DNA of 64,000 nucleotides from a virus (taxonomy: Duplodnaviria; Caudoviricetes), in the IMG/VR virus record IMGVR_UViG_3300045580_000473, positions 59,274 to 123,273 of that record, one strand, 5' to 3'. A model generated the notes under the pieces. The model ran no database searches, was not told where the DNA came from, and saw only the letters and a program-made list of their open reading frames with translations. The translations under genes were made by a program, and so were the position numbers. Positions 3,998 through 64,000 of the stretch are shown here, piece by piece (positions within the stretch are counted from its first letter, which is position 1; every line of letters begins with the position of its first letter).

Positions 3998-5704
3998 CTA
4001 TGACAGCAGGTCCTGACCAAACGTATCAACCGCCGGCATGACGCGGCGGCGGGGACCAGCGGCGGACGGGGCAACCACAGCATTGTTATGCGACGTGGGC
4101 CCCATTTCGCCCTTGAGCATGATCTTCTTGGCCAACTCATTGATGTAGTACGTGTCGTCGACAGACTGCACGTCTACCACATGGTTATTAATCTGCACCA
4201 GCCCGAACGGCGAAGCCGGCCGGCCGAAGCGAATCTTGGACCAGTAGATTGTCGACACGAAACATTCTGGGTCGGGCTTGTTCAAGCACATGCAGGCGTG
4301 CAGGTTCTCGGCAAACGCCTTGGACCCTTGAGCATCAGCGTGACTCACATGTCGATAGGACGGAATACTCTTGATATCGCCCTGTGCCAACTGATGGGCG
4401 ATGATAATCGTGCATCCCAGCGGAATCGCCACCTTGGTTTTAAGCTCGTCAGGCAGATTCTGGAGTTGCCGCCAAATTTGCTCCTGATACTTCGCGGCGG
4501 CATTCTGAGCCATTTCACGGTTAACCATCGGGCCGGCGTAATCGAGGCACACCAGACCGATTTTCTTGCCCGTCTGCTCGGTCAGGTTGGTGAGCGTCAT
4601 AGCCACTTCGTCTACGCCGCCGTTTCCTCGCCCGCCCGTTTCAGGGTTAGCCGAAAAATCGAGAAACGCGAAGTTGTTGTTGTACCACGCCTGCACCGCC
4701 GCCCAGCGTTCACGCTCGCCCAGCATCACCTCCGCATTAGCATTGATAGCCAACTCCCGCTCATACGGTTTGAGGTTGTCAGACGTTGAAAGCTGCTCCC
4801 AAAACTGTTCTTTCGTTTTGTTGATAAAAGCTTCACGTTCAATGTGGGCTGCAGCCGAATAAAGGCTGTAGTTCACCTTTAGTGCACCGTCCTCATAGCT
4901 GATGTAGACGGCCAAGGTGTCAGGATTGTGAATCGCGTATTGTTGGGCCATACGGACGGCAATCACGCTGAGCATGGTCGTCTTGCCGCCGGAGTACGGG
5001 CCCAGAACACCGATCAGGTCACCCGGCCGGAATCCGCCGATATAGTTGTCAATCCACGCGATCCCTGTCGGCACCGGGCTTGGTGGCAGCAAAATGTCGT
5101 CGCCATGGTCGGGCATCAAAGCGGAGTTCACCGCCTCGTTACCCAAATGCCGAACGGCCTGAGCCCGTGTGTTGAACTGCTGCAGCAACGCAGAGAACTC
5201 CCGGGGTGAAGTGTTCTCGTCGCTGTAGCCCACCAGCCGCTGCAGTTCCTGTTTCACCATTCTGGCGTTTAAGAACCGCTTCAGGATGCTTTCCAGATAC
5301 TGTCGCTCTGCCCGCAGTTCCTCTTTGGTCAGCGGCTGAGCCGGTATGGCAAACGCATCGTCAATAAACCCCGTCGTCTCATCGCCGAACAGGAATGATG
5401 AATCAGCCTCGTTCATGCTGATCAGGTTTCGCTCGGCCATCGACATGATCTCGGTCAAGAACATGTCCTTCGTGACCACACCGTCGTGACGTTTATGAAG
5501 CATAATGTGAATGTCCATAAACGTCCGCAACGGCGATTCGTTCCGCCCGTAGAGATGCTCCGGGGATAGGCCCGTTCGCAGAGCGGATTTCAGCACGTTC
5601 GAAAACCGAACTAACCCCCGCACCATCGACTTGATCTCATTGAACGTCAGCGGGGCGTCGTCCAACGGGCGAGTGTCGTCGCCAAAGGTCTGTACACTAG
5701 CCAC
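3998..5704 (-). CDS. DnaB-like replicative helicase
   Basis: Walker A GPYSGGKTT, YISYED, LDYAG, IIAHQL; PTGIAWIDNYIGGFRPGDL precedes the P-loop. Confidence 0.85.
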   Translation of the reverse strand: MASVQTFGDDTRPLDDAPLTFNEIKSMVRGLVRFSNVLKSALRTGLSPEHLYGRNESPLRTFMDIHIMLHKRHDGVVTKDMFLTEIMSMAERNLISMNEADSSFLFGDETTGFIDDAFAIPAQPLTKEELRAERQYLESILKRFLNARMVKQELQRLVGYSDENTSPREFSALLQQFNTRAQAVRHLGNEAVNSALMPDHGDDILLPPSPVPTGIAWIDNYIGGFRPGDLIGVLGPYSGGKTTMLSVIAVRMAQQYAIHNPDTLAVYISYEDGALKVNYSLYSAAAHIEREAFINKTKEQFWEQLSTSDNLKPYERELAINANAEVMLGERERWAAVQAWYNNNFAFLDFSANPETGGRGNGGVDEVAMTLTNLTEQTGKKIGLVCLDYAGPMVNREMAQNAAAKYQEQIWRQLQNLPDELKTKVAIPLGCTIIIAHQLAQGDIKSIPSYRHVSHADAQGSKAFAENLHACMCLNKPDPECFVSTIYWSKIRFGRPASPFGLVQINNHVVDVQSVDDTYYINELAKKIMLKGEMGPTSHNNAVVAPSAAGPRRRVMPAVDTFGQDLLS

Positions 5705-20852: not shown

Positions 20853-20923
20853 TTCGGGGACTACGATTCGAACGTAGAATAACCCGTCCAAAGCGGGTTG
20901 TGATACCGTTTCACCATCCCCGA
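20853..20923 (-). tRNA. tRNA-Gln(UUG)
   Basis: Cloverleaf: TCGGGGA/TCCCCGA acceptor, ACCCG-CTTTGGA-CGGGT anticodon arm, TTCGAAT T loop; CCA not encoded. Confidence 0.93.
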
Positions 20924-25302: not shown

Positions 25303-25781
25303 CCATTCTCCGGTTCCGCCGGAGGGATGGCGTCCTCATTGGTGTCGGGTTCGGCAAGCTGGGCCTTGACGAAGTCCATTCGTTCGCGGACAAGGTTCAC
25401 GGCCTCTTCGGCATTGGCGACCTCGACGAACGGGAGCGTCTTCTGCAAGTGCTCCCACTTAGTCTGGCCGACGCCGGCGACGTTGATCTCGCCCGGCTCG
25501 ACGGTGGTGAACTCGTCAAGCGTGGCCACGGCGATCGCGTCAGGCCGGCTGGAGAACACGAGGATGCGACCGGTTTTGTCGACAAAAAAGCTGGTGCCCT
25601 TGCCGTCGCAGATCACGTACCGGACAGCCGACTCGCCAGTGTCGATGTAGTGGGTCTTCTTTTTCGTTGCCTCTGGCTGCGTCAGAGCCTGTGGATGGCA
25701 GCAATATTTGTATTTCTTCCCGCTGCCACAAATGCAGCGGTCGTTCCTATGCGTGCCAATGGCACGCTTCATGGGGTTCAT
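25299..25781 (-). CDS. SEC-C motif protein
   Basis: RNDRCICGSGKKYKYCC. Confidence 0.85.
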   Translation of the reverse strand: MNPMKRAIGTHRNDRCICGSGKKYKYCCHPQALTQPEATKKKTHYIDTGESAVRYVICDGKGTSFFVDKTGRILVFSSRPDAIAVATLDEFTTVEPGEINVAGVGQTKWEHLQKTLPFVEVANAEEAVNLVRERMDFVKAQLAEPDTNEDAIPPAEPENG

Positions 25782-25805
25782 GTGAGCCTCCGTGCTTGTG
25801 CGGTT

Positions 25806-25833
25806 AGCGTACCGAAAACGGGGAGTCCGTCAA
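25806..25833 (-). promoter_or_regulatory. sigma70-like promoter TTGACG-N16-TACGCT
   Basis: Intergenic, upstream of the SEC-C gene and its GGAGG Shine-Dalgarno. Confidence 0.55.
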
Positions 25834-51622: not shown

Positions 51623-51636
51623 GAAGTATACAAAAA

Positions 51637-51708
51637 AGCCGGTGAAAGGAGTCGAACCTTCAACCTACTAATTACAAATTAGTTGCACTACCATTGTGCT
51701 ACACCGGC
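51637..51708 (-). tRNA. tRNA-Thr(UGU)
   Basis: GCCGGTG/CACCGGC acceptor, ACTAA-TTTGTAA-TTAGT anticodon arm, TTCGACT T loop; CCA not encoded. Confidence 0.94.
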
Positions 51709-51716
51709 TTTGGACG

Positions 51717-54263: not shown

Positions 54264-56876
54264 CTACCCGATCTCTTTGTGGAGGCTGTCTGGTGTTGTG
54301 TAAAACCTTTCAAACCAAGACGCATGAACAAGGACGCCCGGCATATTGTGGATGACTTCTTCGCCTATGTAAACGCCGTCTTTCTGCAGTAACCCGATGA
54401 CAGCAAGCCAGTTAGGGCTTACGCACCGAGAACTATAAAAATAACGATCTATAGCCCGTCGGTTCAACCACCAGCGATCTTTTTTGCAAAGCAGGTAGTC
54501 CCCCGACTGTTTGCCGGTTCGAGGCTGCGGCAAAACGGCTAATTTCCCGGCTAAAATGGCGTTGTTTATTTCTGTCATGAGGGCGGTGTGGGCGTCATTT
54601 TCGTACCGCATGAGCGATCGTACGTGCGGCAGGTTAAACGCGGTGCCGTAGGTTTCCGTCAGCCAGCCGTGCAGGTCTTCGAGAATTATGGCATTTAAAT
54701 TCCCGGCTACACCAAAAATGCTCATTCGCATTTGCAGAAGGCGTTGCACATAAGCCGGCACAATAGCCCGCAGATCGCCGACGTCTGGCGGCGTACCGAG
54801 CCGGGCGGCTGAGATGCTCTGCCAGCCGTAACCAAGTGCAACAGCACTGTTCTGTTTTGTTACGCACAGCAGCAGCGGGCGATTAAAGTATTTCGGGATA
54901 CTTGGCCCGAATACCTCGTCGTTAAACACGCCGGAGCAGATGACAGGCCACGCTGTGTTTTTCGTCGCAGTATCGAGAAACTTGCCTGCAACGTGCTTTT
55001 GGAACGCGGTTGTCTTCTCGTGCGTACAACCCATAGCCTCGGCGACCCGGGTGGCCGTCGAAAATTCATCCGCGACAAACGCGGTAGCCACGCAGTCTTT
55101 CCGAATAATCGGGGCAATCATGTTTGTGAGCACGGCTGCCGCCGTAGCCCATACAAAAGAGTTATCGTGGGCCGGCGTTAAGAGGTGTCGAATCGGGAGC
55201 GGTGCGATTGGCGTGGGTTCTTGAAATACCTTGTTTTTGAGGTGGTTGGGCCACGGTGGCGTTTTCCGAACCTCGCCGGAGTGCGTCAGTTCGTAATTTG
55301 CGAACCGGAAGACGTTGGCCTGCTCGTCCCACCCATAACCGGTTGACACATTTGTCATTTTCGGTTGGTGCATCGTCATTGCGATCTGCTGGGCTTTTTT
55401 ATTCCAGACAAGATCGAAGACGCCTACTTTCCCGTGCGTGGCCAACACGCTGTGGGCGTAGTTTAAAAGCCCGAGCCGTTCAATCTTCTTGGCGTCACTG
55501 CTGAACGGGTACGACGTGTTCTCGAAAATAATCCGGCCATTGTAGGTTTCGGTGCCGCTATCGGCGTGGATGATCTCGTCGATCACTACGCGAAAGTTAG
55601 ACACCTGCCGCCCGCATTGATTCCACCATCCGCTTTCGCGTTCGACGAGAAACCATCGCTGCTGCACCTTGAGCGGGGCGTCAGCCGGAGCATTCACAGA
55701 CAGCATGACGCGGTCTTTAAATCCACCAGAAAACTGGTTTTCAATTTTGTCGAGAAAGCCCTGCAGCCGGTCGGGTGGGATGGTGAGCCGTTTAGCAAAA
55801 GCCTCGGCCGTGGCTTCATTCACGTCGGTCAATGTTGTTTTTAACGCTTGTTGCCACGTCTGGGCTTTGGTGCGGATCGTCGCCAGTTTCGGAAACAAGC
55901 TGACGCGGCTGTTCTGGACGACGGAGACATAGCCGCGGGCGTTGCAGGCCCTACTGATCAATTCCGGCGTCGGGCTCGTGCCGTAAAAAATGCGGTCGGC
56001 CCGGCCGAGCGACTGCCAGCTTGTGCCGTAGCTTTCCGCTTCCGGGCCGGTATAGCTGGCCGTGATTGGCAACCACCCAAGTCCGCGAGAAAAAGCTTTG
56101 CACTGCGTTTTTAGCACCCATAGCACATCGTCAAAAACAAACTGGGTGTTTTTAAGTCTGGGCTGGTCGGCAAGCTGCGTGGTTTGCAGCATGAAATACC
56201 CGGCTTCGGGTCGCCGCTTTCGGCTGCCCGAGATCGGTATGTATGTTTGCTTGGCCTCGTAGGCGTCGTTGTACTGAAGCGTCAGGAACCCGGTGATTCG
56301 ACCGGGCAGGTCGTAAAAAGGAAATACAAGACCGGGGCCATCGTCTCGTAATCGAGGCGGTTTTGGTCGCCCCATTTCCGAACAAATTTTTGTAATCTGG
56401 TCATAGTGTGCGACTCCGATTAATCCGTAACAGTTGTCTAATTCATGGCGTACTCCCAAATCCCTGAGTCGGCACGCAATTACGTCATCACCGTGGTTCC
56501 ATACCTGCGACACAGCGTCGTACAGAAAGTTCTCCGCGGCTGTTTTTCTCGCTAAATACCGGGCATATTCGTCCGCGGCCTTATCCCCCTCTGTTTCGGA
56601 GATTAGGCCTATTTCGCTGAATTTTGCCAATGTATTTGGTAAACTTAGGTTCCATAATTCGGCCCCGAAGATTATGATATCTCCGTGGGCAGAACACCCG
56701 CGGCAATTAAGCCATATTCCGTCCGTAAACAAATCGTCAAACAGTTGAAGCGTGTATTGACCGCAACGAGGGCAGCGAAGCACCGCAGGGAACGCTGGTT
56801 TTTCGAGCGGCAAACCTAAAGCCGACAGTGCACGCAGGTGGTTATGTCGGCGAACTAAAGAGGTAGGAAGACCCAT
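54264..56876 (-). CDS. large primase-like protein (Zn ribbon + degenerate primase/helicase domains)
   Basis: CPRC..CRGC, AHGDII, VFPFYDLPGRITGF, GYGWD; no intact TOPRIM or Walker A seen; probable start MGLPTS at 56876. Confidence 0.6.
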   Translation of the reverse strand: MGLPTSLVRRHNHLRALSALGLPLEKPAFPAVLRCPRCGQYTLQLFDDLFTDGIWLNCRGCSAHGDIIIFGAELWNLSLPNTLAKFSEIGLISETEGDKAADEYARYLARKTAAENFLYDAVSQVWNHGDDVIACRLRDLGVRHELDNCYGLIGVAHYDQITKICSEMGRPKPPRLRDDGPGLVFPFYDLPGRITGFLTLQYNDAYEAKQTYIPISGSRKRRPEAGYFMLQTTQLADQPRLKNTQFVFDDVLWVLKTQCKAFSRGLGWLPITASYTGPEAESYGTSWQSLGRADRIFYGTSPTPELISRACNARGYVSVVQNSRVSLFPKLATIRTKAQTWQQALKTTLTDVNEATAEAFAKRLTIPPDRLQGFLDKIENQFSGGFKDRVMLSVNAPADAPLKVQQRWFLVERESGWWNQCGRQVSNFRVVIDEIIHADSGTETYNGRIIFENTSYPFSSDAKKIERLGLLNYAHSVLATHGKVGVFDLVWNKKAQQIAMTMHQPKMTNVSTGYGWDEQANVFRFANYELTHSGEVRKTPPWPNHLKNKVFQEPTPIAPLPIRHLLTPAHDNSFVWATAAAVLTNMIAPIIRKDCVATAFVADEFSTATRVAEAMGCTHEKTTAFQKHVAGKFLDTATKNTAWPVICSGVFNDEVFGPSIPKYFNRPLLLCVTKQNSAVALGYGWQSISAARLGTPPDVGDLRAIVPAYVQRLLQMRMSIFGVAGNLNAIILEDLHGWLTETYGTAFNLPHVRSLMRYENDAHTALMTEINNAILAGKLAVLPQPRTGKQSGDYLLCKKDRWWLNRRAIDRYFYSSRCVSPNWLAVIGLLQKDGVYIGEEVIHNMPGVLVHASWFERFYTTPDSLHKEIG

Positions 56877-58053
56877 GACAACTCCGCTCGACCAAACGCA
56901 AGACATCAGCGGCCGCGAAACACATCGTCTGACGTCGCTTTTTGACAGCCCTGATTTTGTAAAGTCTGCCTCGCACGAGCGGACACACGGCGACGAAACG
57001 CTTCAACGCCACATGTACGCGGACCAATACAATAAACTCTATCCGTGCCACTCTGCCCCTGCAACATGGCTGTCGTCTTTATTCTTCGCCGACAAGCGGG
57101 CGGAGTTCGACGAAAAGCGGGCCAGCGAGATTCAAAGCCGCCTGCATGCCGCCGCCAAGTTCTTCGGCATTCTGGGTGCAGTCCAAGAGATGGAAGAGAA
57201 GGTCGCGGCTACCGTGGCCGACAATGTTAACAATCTTGGTGACGACCAGTTTGCCATCGTTTGGGTTGGCGACGCCGGCACGAAAGAGCGTCACTGGCCG
57301 CTGCGAAACGCCACAGAAGTGAAGTACGCGGCTCACGGGTTCGCCAAGTGGCGTGACGAGTTCGTCTTCGAAGACCGGCACACGATTGCCGAGAAGATTC
57401 TCGTCAAGGCCGCCGAGCACGCAGCCGACATCTCTGAGCACGAGCACATGCTGGCTCTGACGGCGGGTCACGGAGCCTGTGCGGCCAAGGTGGCCACCGA
57501 GATGCTGCGGGACCGGGCTCGTCTGGTGCAACGCAGCAATCAGCCCGCCGCGGCTGAAATGGCGAAGCTGGCAAGCGTGCTGGAGCAGAACCCAGAGAAC
57601 GCCCGGGCTCACGAAACTCGTGTCAAGCTGGCGGCGGCAATCGACGAGTTCGATCGTGTGAACCACCTGTACCGGCTGTACGACGACGGCGGGCTGCCTC
57701 GGGCCGAAGAGGTGCTGTTTGCGGTCACCGAGAAAGCTGCCCGCGAGTTCATGTCTGAGAACGTCGAGACGACCACGGGCAATGTGTACGCCTTGTCAGA
57801 CCTTGAAAAGCTGGCATTGGACGACGTGCGGAACTGGCTCGGCGACGAGTTTGCAGACGCTGTCAGTGCTGGCGGCGTTTACATCGACCGCGACAAGCTT
57901 GCGGCGATTGTGCCAACGCTTGACCGCGGAATGGCAGCGTCTCTTGATCGCCTGATGCAGGACAACAAGATGGCTGCCGTGGTTCGGACAAAAGCTGCTG
58001 AAAGCCTGCTTCCGCTCGATCGACTGTTCGAGTTGGCGGCTCAGGCAGAATAG
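56875..58053 (+). CDS. hypothetical protein (392 aa, possibly late/virion)
   Basis: AGGA Shine-Dalgarno, long ORF, followed by a terminator. Confidence 0.75.
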   Translation: MTTPLDQTQDISGRETHRLTSLFDSPDFVKSASHERTHGDETLQRHMYADQYNKLYPCHSAPATWLSSLFFADKRAEFDEKRASEIQSRLHAAAKFFGILGAVQEMEEKVAATVADNVNNLGDDQFAIVWVGDAGTKERHWPLRNATEVKYAAHGFAKWRDEFVFEDRHTIAEKILVKAAEHAADISEHEHMLALTAGHGACAAKVATEMLRDRARLVQRSNQPAAAEMAKLASVLEQNPENARAHETRVKLAAAIDEFDRVNHLYRLYDDGGLPRAEEVLFAVTEKAAREFMSENVETTTGNVYALSDLEKLALDDVRNWLGDEFADAVSAGGVYIDRDKLAAIVPTLDRGMAASLDRLMQDNKMAAVVRTKAAESLLPLDRLFELAAQAE

Positions 58054-58090
58054 TCAATCTTTTCTGGCGTCCCGTTAGGGTCGTCCCTTG

Positions 58091-58124
58091 CACCCGGCCG
58101 AGAAATCAGCCGGGTGTTTTTTTT
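58091..58124 (+). terminator. Rho-independent terminator
   Basis: CACCCGGC-N10-GCCGGGTG followed by T8. Confidence 0.75.
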
Positions 58125-58128
58125 GGTA

Positions 58129-58156
58129 TTGACGCTTTTGGGGGGATCGTTATGCT
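58129..58156 (+). promoter_or_regulatory. sigma70-like promoter TTGACG-N16-TATGCT
   Basis: Immediately after the terminator, pointing into an ORF-free stretch. Confidence 0.65.
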
Positions 58157-58161
58157 CTGCC

Positions 58162-58285
58162 CTCGCGGCAAGGAACGGCGGCGACGGCACATGGTCGGGT
58201 CGCTAGCCCATTATTTGCAAGGACAGCATTTAGCAATCCAAGGACTGGACTGCGAAGCACCCGGCAGGACGCCGGGTGCTTTTTT
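58162..58285 (+). ncRNA. putative CsrB/RsmZ-like sRNA
   Basis: Bounded by a promoter and a terminator; four AGGA motifs, at least three in hairpin loops; csrA 440 bp away. Confidence 0.6.
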
Positions 58286-58773
58286 ATTTACACCGCTCAA
58301 AATCGCGTTTTAACGGCACGCCAACGTGAATTGCTAAACCACCCCAAATTCTGAATAGCGTTTCAGTTGATAATTTCTCAGCGTCGCTCGACGTGAGTTC
58401 AGCATGTAACTCGTCTAACTGGTCGTAAATTGCGTTAAAAAGGATATTCCGTTTCTGATCCTCCGGCAGTTTTAGAAACCAGTCCCTCGGGACTCTCTTT
58501 TTCTTCGTTGCCGGTGTCTTCTTTTTCTTGGTTTTGGCCAAATAAAGCCGCCCAAAGCCGTGGAATAAGACCACGGGTTTTCTGGCTCTCCTGTGGTGTG
58601 CCCTGCTCGCTGAGTGCGGCGGGGTCTAAATTCTGTGACGTCAGGCCGGCTTCTTCTTCTTCGGCCAGCCGCATATCAACGTACTCTAGCCACGCCTCGT
58701 ATTCGTCGCGGGCTTGATAGTATTCACGAGGCGGAGTGTAAGGGTCCTCCGGTAGCCGGTCGTTCCAGCCCAT
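58284..58773 (-). CDS. two small hypothetical genes (58284-~58549, 58435-58773)
   Basis: Overlapping ORFs downstream of csrA. Confidence 0.5.
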
Positions 58774-58948
58774 CTTTAGCCTCTTTGGAAATGACGAGTT
58801 CGCTTCGCATGATCGACACGCAGTCGTCTGCCGTGAACCCGAGTTTGACTTTGTCTCCTATAACCTCCACAACACGAATCGTAATGACGCGGCCCTCGGG
58901 AGTTTTAACGAGGACGTCTTCGTCTTTCTTACGAGATAGAACTAACAC
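58724..58948 (-). CDS. csrA: carbon storage regulator CsrA/RsmA homologue
   Basis: MLVLSRK..E.V....ITIRVVEVIGDKVKLGFTA...VSIMRSEL. Confidence 0.9.
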   Translation of the reverse strand: MLVLSRKKDEDVLVKTPEGRVITIRVVEVIGDKVKLGFTADDCVSIMRSELVISKEAKDGLERPATGGPLHSAS

Positions 58949-58959
58949 GACACTGCCTT

Positions 58960-59631
58960 TCAGCCCGCGGCGGCTTCGAGCATTTGTGCCACTTGTTCCG
59001 CGGAGCCATTTTTGAGGTTAAGGGCTCGTAACTGAGCCACGAGAAGTTTTGTTCTGAATCGAATTGACTGCTCGATGTCTTGGCGTTTGCCTTCCTCTAA
59101 ATCATATACGGCGTTGAACATCGCCGGGTCGTCAGAAAAATCGCCGATCGACGGCGAGACACGGGCCTGTCGGAGGGCGATCCGCAGGATGTCCGGCGGG
59201 TTCACCAACCCCTCCGAGTCTAGCACGGCTCCGATGTAGGCTCGAATTTCGTCCGTAAATGGTTCTGGGTCATCATCTTCCGGCGGGTAGATGAGCAGGG
59301 CTTCGGTGACGCCCCACGCCACTTCCTCGGCGTCGGCCGGGTCCCACATGTCCGGGCGGTACGGGTCGCCGGAGAGCACGTTGCAGAACGAGATGAAGTC
59401 GGGCAGGCTCTTGTAGAACCTGTCCGTGGTGAGGATTTGGATCGCTACCATCAGCTTGTCGAGGGCCAGTTGCGGCAGGTCGACGTCAAAGTCTTCTTCA
59501 ACTTCCAGCGAGATTGTCGAGGGGTCCCACGTCAGAGCCTCCAAGCCGAAGCGGTCGATGTACATCGTCAGCAAGACTGATGCAAACGTCTCCCGACTCT
59601 TCCACGCTTCCTGCATTATGTTTTTTGACAT
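58960..59631 (-). CDS. hypothetical protein
   Basis: 223-aa ORF with AAGGA Shine-Dalgarno. Confidence 0.75.
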   Translation of the reverse strand: MSKNIMQEAWKSRETFASVLLTMYIDRFGLEALTWDPSTISLEVEEDFDVDLPQLALDKLMVAIQILTTDRFYKSLPDFISFCNVLSGDPYRPDMWDPADAEEVAWGVTEALLIYPPEDDDPEPFTDEIRAYIGAVLDSEGLVNPPDILRIALRQARVSPSIGDFSDDPAMFNAVYDLEEGKRQDIEQSIRFRTKLLVAQLRALNLKNGSAEQVAQMLEAAAG

Positions 59632-61722: not shown

Positions 61723-62559
61723 TCACGTCTCTTCTGGCGGCGAGCCGATCCATACGTCACCGCCCGGCAACAGGTCGTCTGCCACGTCGAGCGTGTTCTT
61801 GAGCAGTTGCACATCTTCAATAACGCTATTGATGAATTCTCGGGCTTCTTCCCGTGAGCGGACCATGACGTCGACATAGTTCAGTCGAAACCATGCCGGC
61901 CGGCTATTAGGTATGGCCTGATCTTCTGGGTATTCTTCGAGATCGACCGACGAGCAGACGTGGTCGAAGGTTGCTACCTGCTGCGTGCCGCCCGGCTTTA
62001 CGGGCAGCATTTGGTAGGCAAATATCTTGGTCGGCATACCGGTTGATTCGGTCGCGGTGATTCTGATGCGGATGCCGTCAATATCGTTAATGTCGTACCG
62101 GCTGACGGCCCACTCCAGATGTACGTTCCGGCCGGTTTCCTGAATCGGCAGGATTGGCTCGATATCGCGTGAGAAAAACGTGACGGTAAGCGGCTCTGCA
62201 AACCATGCAGCCCCGGCCGACGAGTTTGCCAGTTTTTGCAACGCCTCGGGTGACGAGAGATCACGCTCGTCAACCATTGTGCCCATATTGGACACAAGCG
62301 TACGGGCTCGAATATTAATTACGCCCGGCGTCGTGGCCGTGATGTAGCCGACCGTCGTGCCGTCTGGTTGTGTCAGGGCCGGCTGTGAGACGATTACGTT
62401 TTGACCGTCTGCGACCAGTTCGACCTGCCGCCACGCAATCGGATTGTTGTCGGCATCACGCAGACGAATTTTAATAGCTGCGGCGTCTTTGCCGTTCGAC
62501 AGCACGAACGGACGATTGCCGTGAAGCAGTTTTGAGTTAGTCGGGCTGAATGTTTGCAT
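61723..62559 (-). CDS. Ig-like (Big_1) domain protein
   Basis: SNGKDAAAIKIRLRDADNNPI...V...TQPDGTT.G.ITATTPG. Confidence 0.7.
   Translation of the reverse strand: MQTFSPTNSKLLHGNRPFVLSNGKDAAAIKIRLRDADNNPIAWRQVELVADGQNVIVSQPALTQPDGTTVGYITATTPGVINIRARTLVSNMGTMVDERDLSSPEALQKLANSSAGAAWFAEPLTVTFFSRDIEPILPIQETGRNVHLEWAVSRYDINDIDGIRIRITATESTGMPTKIFAYQMLPVKPGGTQQVATFDHVCSSVDLEEYPEDQAIPNSRPAWFRLNYVDVMVRSREEAREFINSVIEDVQLLKNTLDVADDLLPGGDVWIGSPPEET

Positions 62560-62970: not shown

Positions 62971-64000
<1,030 letters not shown>

Follow-up and report, generated by a model that had tools for sequence, protein, structure and literature searches.

The question raised by this locus is whether a phage that encodes a homologue of CsrA also encodes a small RNA that serves as a decoy for it. 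The window, that is, the whole stretch of 64,000 nucleotides that was analyzed, is the terminal 64 kb of an IMG/VR virus record of 123 kb with a G+C content of 56%, estimated to be 60% complete and thus derived from an uncultured phage of approximately 200 kb. Nearly all genes of this contig are located on the minus strand, and they include those for a large terminase, helicases and SbcC-like proteins. The contig is far from isolated phages, with a TerL identity of at most 30% to any of them, and a nucleotide-level search against isolated phages returned no match. The public DNA runs in which the stretch is present are freshwater and lake metagenomes. These matching runs include no RNA run, and no contig of a metatranscriptome run from the same study covers the stretch; both results are uninformative on expression.

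The initial annotation described a terminator, the promoter-like arrangement TTGACG-N16-TATGCT, a unit of about 120 nt and a second terminator, followed by a convergent csrA homologue, and all of these elements could be read at their places (Table 1). Together, the promoter, an RNA of about 125 nt and its terminator occupy 58129-58288 (+), between the terminator of the upstream gene p392 and the csrA operon, with 434 bp separating the end of the RNA from the csrA stop codon. A promoter scan of the region 57500-59500 returned a single promoter-like site, which is the one in front of the RNA. Since no gene follows on its strand, the RNA is not a leader. The stem arms CACCCGGC/GCCGGGUG are identical in terminators 1 and 2. 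The only other TTGACG-N16-TAnnnT site of the contig, at 25806-25833 (-), immediately precedes the gene that begins at 25781 (Shine-Dalgarno sequence GCACGGAGG), and is possibly a second host-type promoter.

Table 1. Coordinates of the features discussed, in positions of the window.
Feature	Position	Strand	Remarks
tRNA genes Gln-TTG, Thr-TGT	20853-20923, 51636-51709	-	two phage tRNAs
p392	56875..58053	+	ORF of 392 aa, upstream of the RNA unit
Hairpin in the p392 3' UTR	58066..58085	+	GGCGUCCC-GUUA-GGGUCGUC, constant U.U mismatch; outside the small RNA
Terminator 1	58091..58124	+	ends p392; read from the sequence; same position in all relatives that bear the small RNA
Sigma-70-like promoter	58129..58156	+	TTGACG (58129-58134), 16-nt spacer, TATGCT (58151-58156)
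Small RNA	58163..58288	+	~125 nt; ends deduced from the -10 box (5') and from the terminator U-run (3')
SL1, long stem-loop	58167..58208	+	RNAalifold; two pairs covary, GC<->CG and CG<->UA
GGA site 1	58172-58174	+	5' internal loop of SL1; GGA kept in 12/12
GGA site 2	58218..58226	+	CAAGGACA; single-stranded linker, unpaired in the consensus; kept in 12/12 and in the L005 mini version
SL3	58233..58253	+	GCAAUCC / GGACUGC with 7-nt loop AAGGACU; present in all homologues
GGA site 3a	58242-58244	+	7-nt SL3 loop; kept in 12/12
Second SL3 GGA	58247-58249	+	3' side of the SL3 stem
Terminator 2	58254..58288 (hairpin 58254-58282)	+	12 pairs, 8 of them G-C; 5-nt loop AGGAC; U-run
Terminator-loop GGA	58267-58269	+	AGGAY in 7/12 homologues, AUGAY in 5/12
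Second small frame	58284-58574	-	shares 140 nt with orf112; ends at the small-RNA terminator
orf112	58435-58773	-	shares 50 nt with the 3' end of csrA; N-terminal part conserved in relatives
csrA	58724-58948	-	74 aa; Pfam PF02599, 50.8 bits (cut-off 27), E 1.6e-13
orf223	58960..59631	-	highly conserved; just upstream of csrA, with 12 nt between its stop and the start of csrA
Big_1 Ig-like domain protein	61723-62559		adjoins the collagen-repeat gene
Collagen triple-helix repeat protein	62971-63957	-	Pfam Collagen, 132.9 bits

The gene p392 matched no Pfam family and no PHROG family; about 20 related phage contigs carry it, with identities of 60-86%. Its start overlaps by 32 nt the start of a divergent 880-aa gene (56906, -), which has a zinc-ribbon at its N-terminus; the leader of p392 therefore falls within the coding sequence of that gene. 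Directly after the p392 stop codon stands a hairpin of the pattern NNNG-UCCC-N4-GGGU-CNNN, of which nine distinct variants were collected, with compensatory changes in both the outer and the inner half of the stem. This hairpin is found family-wide (in the window and in L002-L004, L008, L009, L015, L029-L040), including relatives that have no copy of the small RNA, and is an undescribed structured 3'-UTR element.

To recover homologues of the RNA, contigs were fetched through close homologues of the phage CsrA and a pattern scan was run, which together yielded 12 distinct sequences of the unit. Across these 12 sequences no base of the -35 hexamer changes, and the -10 element retains its T, its A and its last T, with a freely variable 16-nt spacer between the two boxes; terminator 2 is kept in all of them. 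Such conserved hexamers around a variable spacer, together with the terminator, bear the mark of a working promoter and terminator and not of drifting DNA. The unit had been called ORF-free, which holds only loosely: mechanical ORFs of 30-53 aa overlap it, and insertions and deletions of 1, 2 and 4 nt among the homologues break every reading frame, so that a conserved peptide is excluded.

An RNAalifold consensus and the covariance model built for the family (R1) contain four helices. The model scores 115-140 bits in the 12 homologues, with one copy per record, and 99.1% of the cells that the consensus pairs can indeed pair, versus 30-40% when the partners are slid. Compensatory change is seen at three pairs, of which SL1 has two, at its base, and SL3 the third, and only 21 of the 55 unpaired internal columns are invariant. 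The apex of SL1, GGCAYAUGGUCG, is near-invariant and is the most conserved GGA-free part of the RNA. Of the hairpins proposed from the single sequence, TCCA-AGGAC-TGGA falls within the conserved SL3 and CCGGC-AGGAC-GCCGG corresponds to the terminator loop, while TGC-AAGGACA-GCA has a stem of only 3 bp that is not kept in relatives. A search of Rfam gave no family match to the RNA, and its Csr/Rsm families (CsrB, CsrC, RsmX, RsmY, RsmZ/PrrB) gave none, either in this region of the window, at E<=10, or in four loci homologous to it, at E<=1; the sub-threshold matches (rteR at 26 bits, P15, anti-hemB) were set aside as terminator-driven chance hits. Likewise, no homologue was found in cellular genomes: a 21-nt conserved-core pattern occurs in 5 bacterial contigs, all of which score below 17 bits with R1 and are chance occurrences. 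Judged by these comparative sequence data, the unit is a bona fide phage small-RNA gene, and the RNA is an undescribed structured family with a well-defined promoter and terminator, whatever its function.

The GGA trinucleotides reported at 58172, 58221, 58242 and 58267 were confirmed, and two more are present, at 58247 in a stem and at 58145 in the promoter spacer. The cores of the three unpaired sites (1, 2 and 3a) are unchanged in 12/12 homologues despite variable flanks: the bases preceding the cores vary among aa, ga and ca, and those following them among ac/at/tc/tg, ca/ac/cg/tg and ct/tc/tt/ta/ca/ac. The GGA of the SL3 loop has a predicted unpaired probability of 0.79-1.00 in every homologue, the terminator loop is in the same range, and sites 1 and 2 reach moderate values of 0.33-0.94 in single-sequence folds. 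The terminator-loop GGA is dispensable, as UGA replaces it in 5/12 homologues. The plain count of five GGAs lies within the expectation from composition, being reached by 11% of shuffles. When the sequence context is considered, four CA(N)GGA motifs are seen in 0.025% of shuffles, three of the nine CAAGGA and 3/31 AAGGA occurrences on the plus strand of the contig fall inside the RNA unit, and the unit is the AGGA density peak of that strand (4 in 125 nt versus a mean of 0.19), all of these being post hoc statistics. The top GGA density of the window is due to the collagen-repeat and Big_1 genes, whose products are likely fibre or decoration proteins; the GGA-dense region at 63104-63316 (-) was rejected as an RNA decoy, its GGAs being glycine codons of the collagen-repeat gene.

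The csrA gene also scores 45.4 bits in a six-frame search of the genome and is assigned to PHROG 9500, 'CsrA-like regulator'. The nearest solved structures are the CsrA proteins of B. subtilis (1t3o) and Geobacillus (5dmb). The beta1 segment MLVLSRK is identical to that of B. subtilis CsrA, the arginine of IMRSEL aligns with that of IHRKEI in beta5, and L2, L4, R6, K7 and R48 are invariant across 20 homologues of the phage clade. These correspond to the beta1 motif M-L-x-L-x-R-R/K and the beta5 arginine (R44 in E. coli), which we take, from mutagenesis in E. coli, to be the RNA-binding positions. To judge from its sequence, this is a genuine CsrA-family gene that keeps the RNA-binding positions; members of this family are homodimers that bind GGA-containing RNA. 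The protein differs by an insertion of 4 residues and by its C-terminal tail, G-LERP, which is conserved. A tblastn search with it matched a single GenBank phage record, and it forms a lineage separate from the reported phage and plasmid CsrAs.

Around csrA, the small genes downstream (58284..58773) matched no known family, and their gene calls vary among relatives. In the overlap of csrA and orf112 both frames look conserved, the CsrA tail as G-LERP..GP and the orf112 N-terminus as MGWNDRLPEDPY. On the other side, the Atlas gave for orf223 no more than a weak lead, to clusters resembling phage helicase loaders. The leaders of p392 and orf223 were considered as CsrA targets and rejected, since their conserved GGAs are overlapping coding sequence or ordinary Shine-Dalgarno sites. 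The initial argument from ribosome-binding sites of ANGGA form at 25790, 61715 and 15722 is uninformative: these are real minus-strand Shine-Dalgarno sites, but any GGAGG contains GGA.

The module in which p392 (+) is followed by convergent orf112, csrA and orf223 (-) was found in about 25 related contigs. In a tree of orf223, the 14 bearers of the full-length RNA form one clade (support 94/89), whose nearest neighbors are L005 and the group of L003, L004 and L007; all deeper branches that carry csrA have only the p392 3'-UTR hairpin and a single terminator at the junction. All RNA bearers have csrA, at about 0.45-0.7 kb from the RNA in every contig, a co-occurrence biased in this direction as most homologues were obtained through their CsrA; conversely, many csrA-bearing relatives have no RNA. 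Among the latter is a complete genome of 198 kb (G001, which holds L004), in which neither a homologue of the RNA nor an analogous GGA-rich non-coding unit was found: the sole match, at 16 bits, lies inside a 302-aa ORF, and an apparently ORF-free GGA-rich spot from a motif-density scan is the gene of a small Cys-rich protein. CsrA thus functions without the RNA in these relatives, and the 'complete circuit' that had been proposed is not a general trait, as csrA is family-wide and the RNA is confined to one subclade. What stands of that proposal is a real csrA with a conserved, independently promoted and terminated small RNA adjacent to it that has invariant single-stranded GGA cores. In this phage lineage csrA is much older than the RNA, which is a later, lineage-specific addition.

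Two other arrangements are present at the same junction. In L005 a mini version of about 75 nt keeps site 2, SL3 with its loop GGA and the GGA terminator loop, three GGAs in total; it has no SL1 and stands directly after the p392 stop codon with no terminator between. Its SL3 shows a compensatory change from A-U to G-C. A promoter picked by eye in L005 (TTGCGG-17-TATAGT) fails the promoter scan. In L003/L004, the place of the small RNA (at 5590-5670) is taken by an ORF of 125 aa and, after it, a tRNA-like sequence that ends in CCA; the junction between p392 and csrA is a hot spot for insertions. Because the stem arms of the two terminators are identical and the L005 form exists, we suggest that the RNA arose from the p392 3' UTR and later became autonomous by terminator duplication and promoter gain.

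From the gene and its conservation we infer the transcription of the RNA, its binding to CsrA, the CsrA that it meets and its physiological effect. Under this proposal, a host sigma-70-type RNA polymerase would transcribe the RNA from its own promoter, constitutively or early, and the intrinsic terminator would end it. The RNA displays three invariant GGA cores that are accessible and stand in a CA(N)GGA setting, in the SL1 internal loop, the linker and the SL3 loop, to which about half of the family adds a fourth in the terminator loop, and it would bind CsrA-family dimers with a capacity of about two. As a small decoy it would buffer the phage CsrA and/or titrate that of the host, relieving CsrA-mediated control of translation during infection. 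The timing proposed initially, with an early RNA and a late CsrA, found no support. Kulkarni et al. 2006 (PMC1488887) described five sequence criteria for sRNAs that regulate CsrA, among them AGGA/ARGGA density and the upstream site TGTAAG-N6-CTTACA, and the candidate shows four of the five, being intergenic, dense in the motif, provided with a terminator, and having GGA in loops or free regions. The fifth, a GacA/UvrY box, was absent at <=3 mismatches around 58000-58160, as expected for a phage promoter. With only 3-4 usable GGA sites, the RNA is far below CsrB and comparable with those Rsm RNAs that have the fewest. Altogether, we consider the chances about evenly balanced that the RNA is a small CsrA-binding decoy for phage and/or host CsrA. 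More tentatively, and with a probability somewhat short of even, these large freshwater phages may carry a self-contained Csr module, in which a GGA-decoy RNA, recruited after csrA and possibly from the p392 3' UTR through an L005-like form, joined their own CsrA.

A pure decoy leaves the SL1 apex unexplained, as this apex is the most conserved segment and contains no GGA. The RNA could instead be a trans-acting sRNA of the Hfq/ProQ type that acts by base-pairing, with the SL1 apex or the A/U-rich linker as its seed and the GGAs incidental or a secondary CsrA contact. A U-tailed terminator and an A/U-rich linker are typical of Hfq-dependent sRNAs, and both are present here; in addition, the apical sequence of SL1 is conserved as strongly as the GGAs, and an AUG lies within its complement. 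However, complements of the seed in the 123-kb contig, which covers about 60% of the phage genome, occur only with 2 mismatches and none at a plausible gene start, and a duplex scan of the contig for RNA targets was dominated by GC-rich noise. The mini version of L005, which dispenses with SL1 but retains GGA elements, also argues against this role. We regard base-pairing as unlikely, while giving it an appreciable share of the probability. A lower probability, in the range of the improbable, attaches to a cis-acting or 3'-UTR-derived element with no trans function, in which a duplicated terminator module insulates p392 from the csrA operon or produces antisense interference. The identical stem arms suggest such a duplication, the L005 form directly follows p392, with no terminator between and no promoter recognized by the scan, and the hot spot accepts other inserts in relatives (the ORF with the tRNA-like sequence, and other ORFs). 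But an insulator needs neither an invariant -35/-10, nor a conserved structured body of 90 nt, nor invariant GGA cores, and relatives cope with one terminator.

The RNA might also be a structured partner of another protein, or have a function unrelated to CsrA, and stand beside csrA by chance. The different evolutionary ages of csrA and the RNA, and the lack of a match among known RNA families, agree with this reading, while the enrichment of CA(N)GGA and the invariance of the GGAs specifically fit the CsrA recognition motif; we rate it as slightly less probable still than the cis-acting element. That promoter, terminator and GGAs came together by chance, with no functional feature at all, is extremely improbable. 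Such a reading can draw on the frequency of TTGACG-N15-18-TANNNT, for which the contig shows no enrichment (2 sites versus 2.6 expected), and on a GGA count that is unremarkable by itself, but it is contradicted by 12 distinct homologues with selective conservation, compensatory changes and one copy per genome.

If the decoy reading is true, the locus would provide a virus-encoded protein-sponge RNA for CsrA, with which the phage could tune translation in the cell that it infects. An antagonist RNA carried by a phage would show that mobile elements bring in a global post-transcriptional regulator along with the means to adjust it. The 74-aa protein and the 125-nt RNA would constitute a compact, testable system for the rewiring of host translation by phages and also for the origin of decoy RNAs, for which a 3' UTR is a possible source.

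Several known systems allow this proposal to be placed in context. McaS of E. coli is a short, dual-function, low-capacity CsrA-binding sRNA with few GGA sites and other conserved single-stranded sequence. Our candidate likewise combines few GGA sites with a conserved single-stranded stretch, so that CsrA binding and base-pairing are both conceivable, but it has no homology to McaS. In the FliW-CsrA partner-switch of Bacillus and Geobacillus (PDB 5dmb), the CsrA is the closest in sequence to that of the phage, which has a conserved C-terminal extension; unlike in those systems, no FliW (PF02623) was found in the contig or in the complete relative, and the proposed antagonist is an RNA. CsrA homologues have been reported in 30/2517 phages, and csrA-carrying phages can infect hosts that have no chromosomal csrA (PMC7366521); gp47 of the Bcep22-like phage JC1 is a CsrA homologue (PMC9144972), and so is RsmQ of plasmid pQBR103, which interacts with host Rsm RNAs (PMC9928087). 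As in these reports, a mobile element here carries its own CsrA-family regulator; in the literature searched, including these three papers, no phage-encoded decoy RNA of the Csr/Rsm type was found.

The closest comparison is with the CsrA-titrating RNAs RsmX, RsmY and RsmZ of Pseudomonas and Legionella and CsrB and CsrC of Enterobacteria. Like them, the candidate is a stand-alone intergenic sRNA with an intrinsic terminator, its A(N)GGA motifs occupy the loop of a hairpin, a linker and, in many homologues, the loop of the terminator, and its genome also encodes a CsrA protein; its size is close to that of RsmY and RsmZ (about 110-130 nt). In contrast to these RNAs, it is encoded by a phage, has a plain sigma-70-like promoter with no GacA/UvrY box, offers 3-4 usable GGA sites only, contains the large, conserved, GGA-free SL1, and shows no sequence or structure homology to them in Rfam. 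Although a member of no known RNA family, it would, if our inference holds, work in the manner of an Rsm/Csr decoy.
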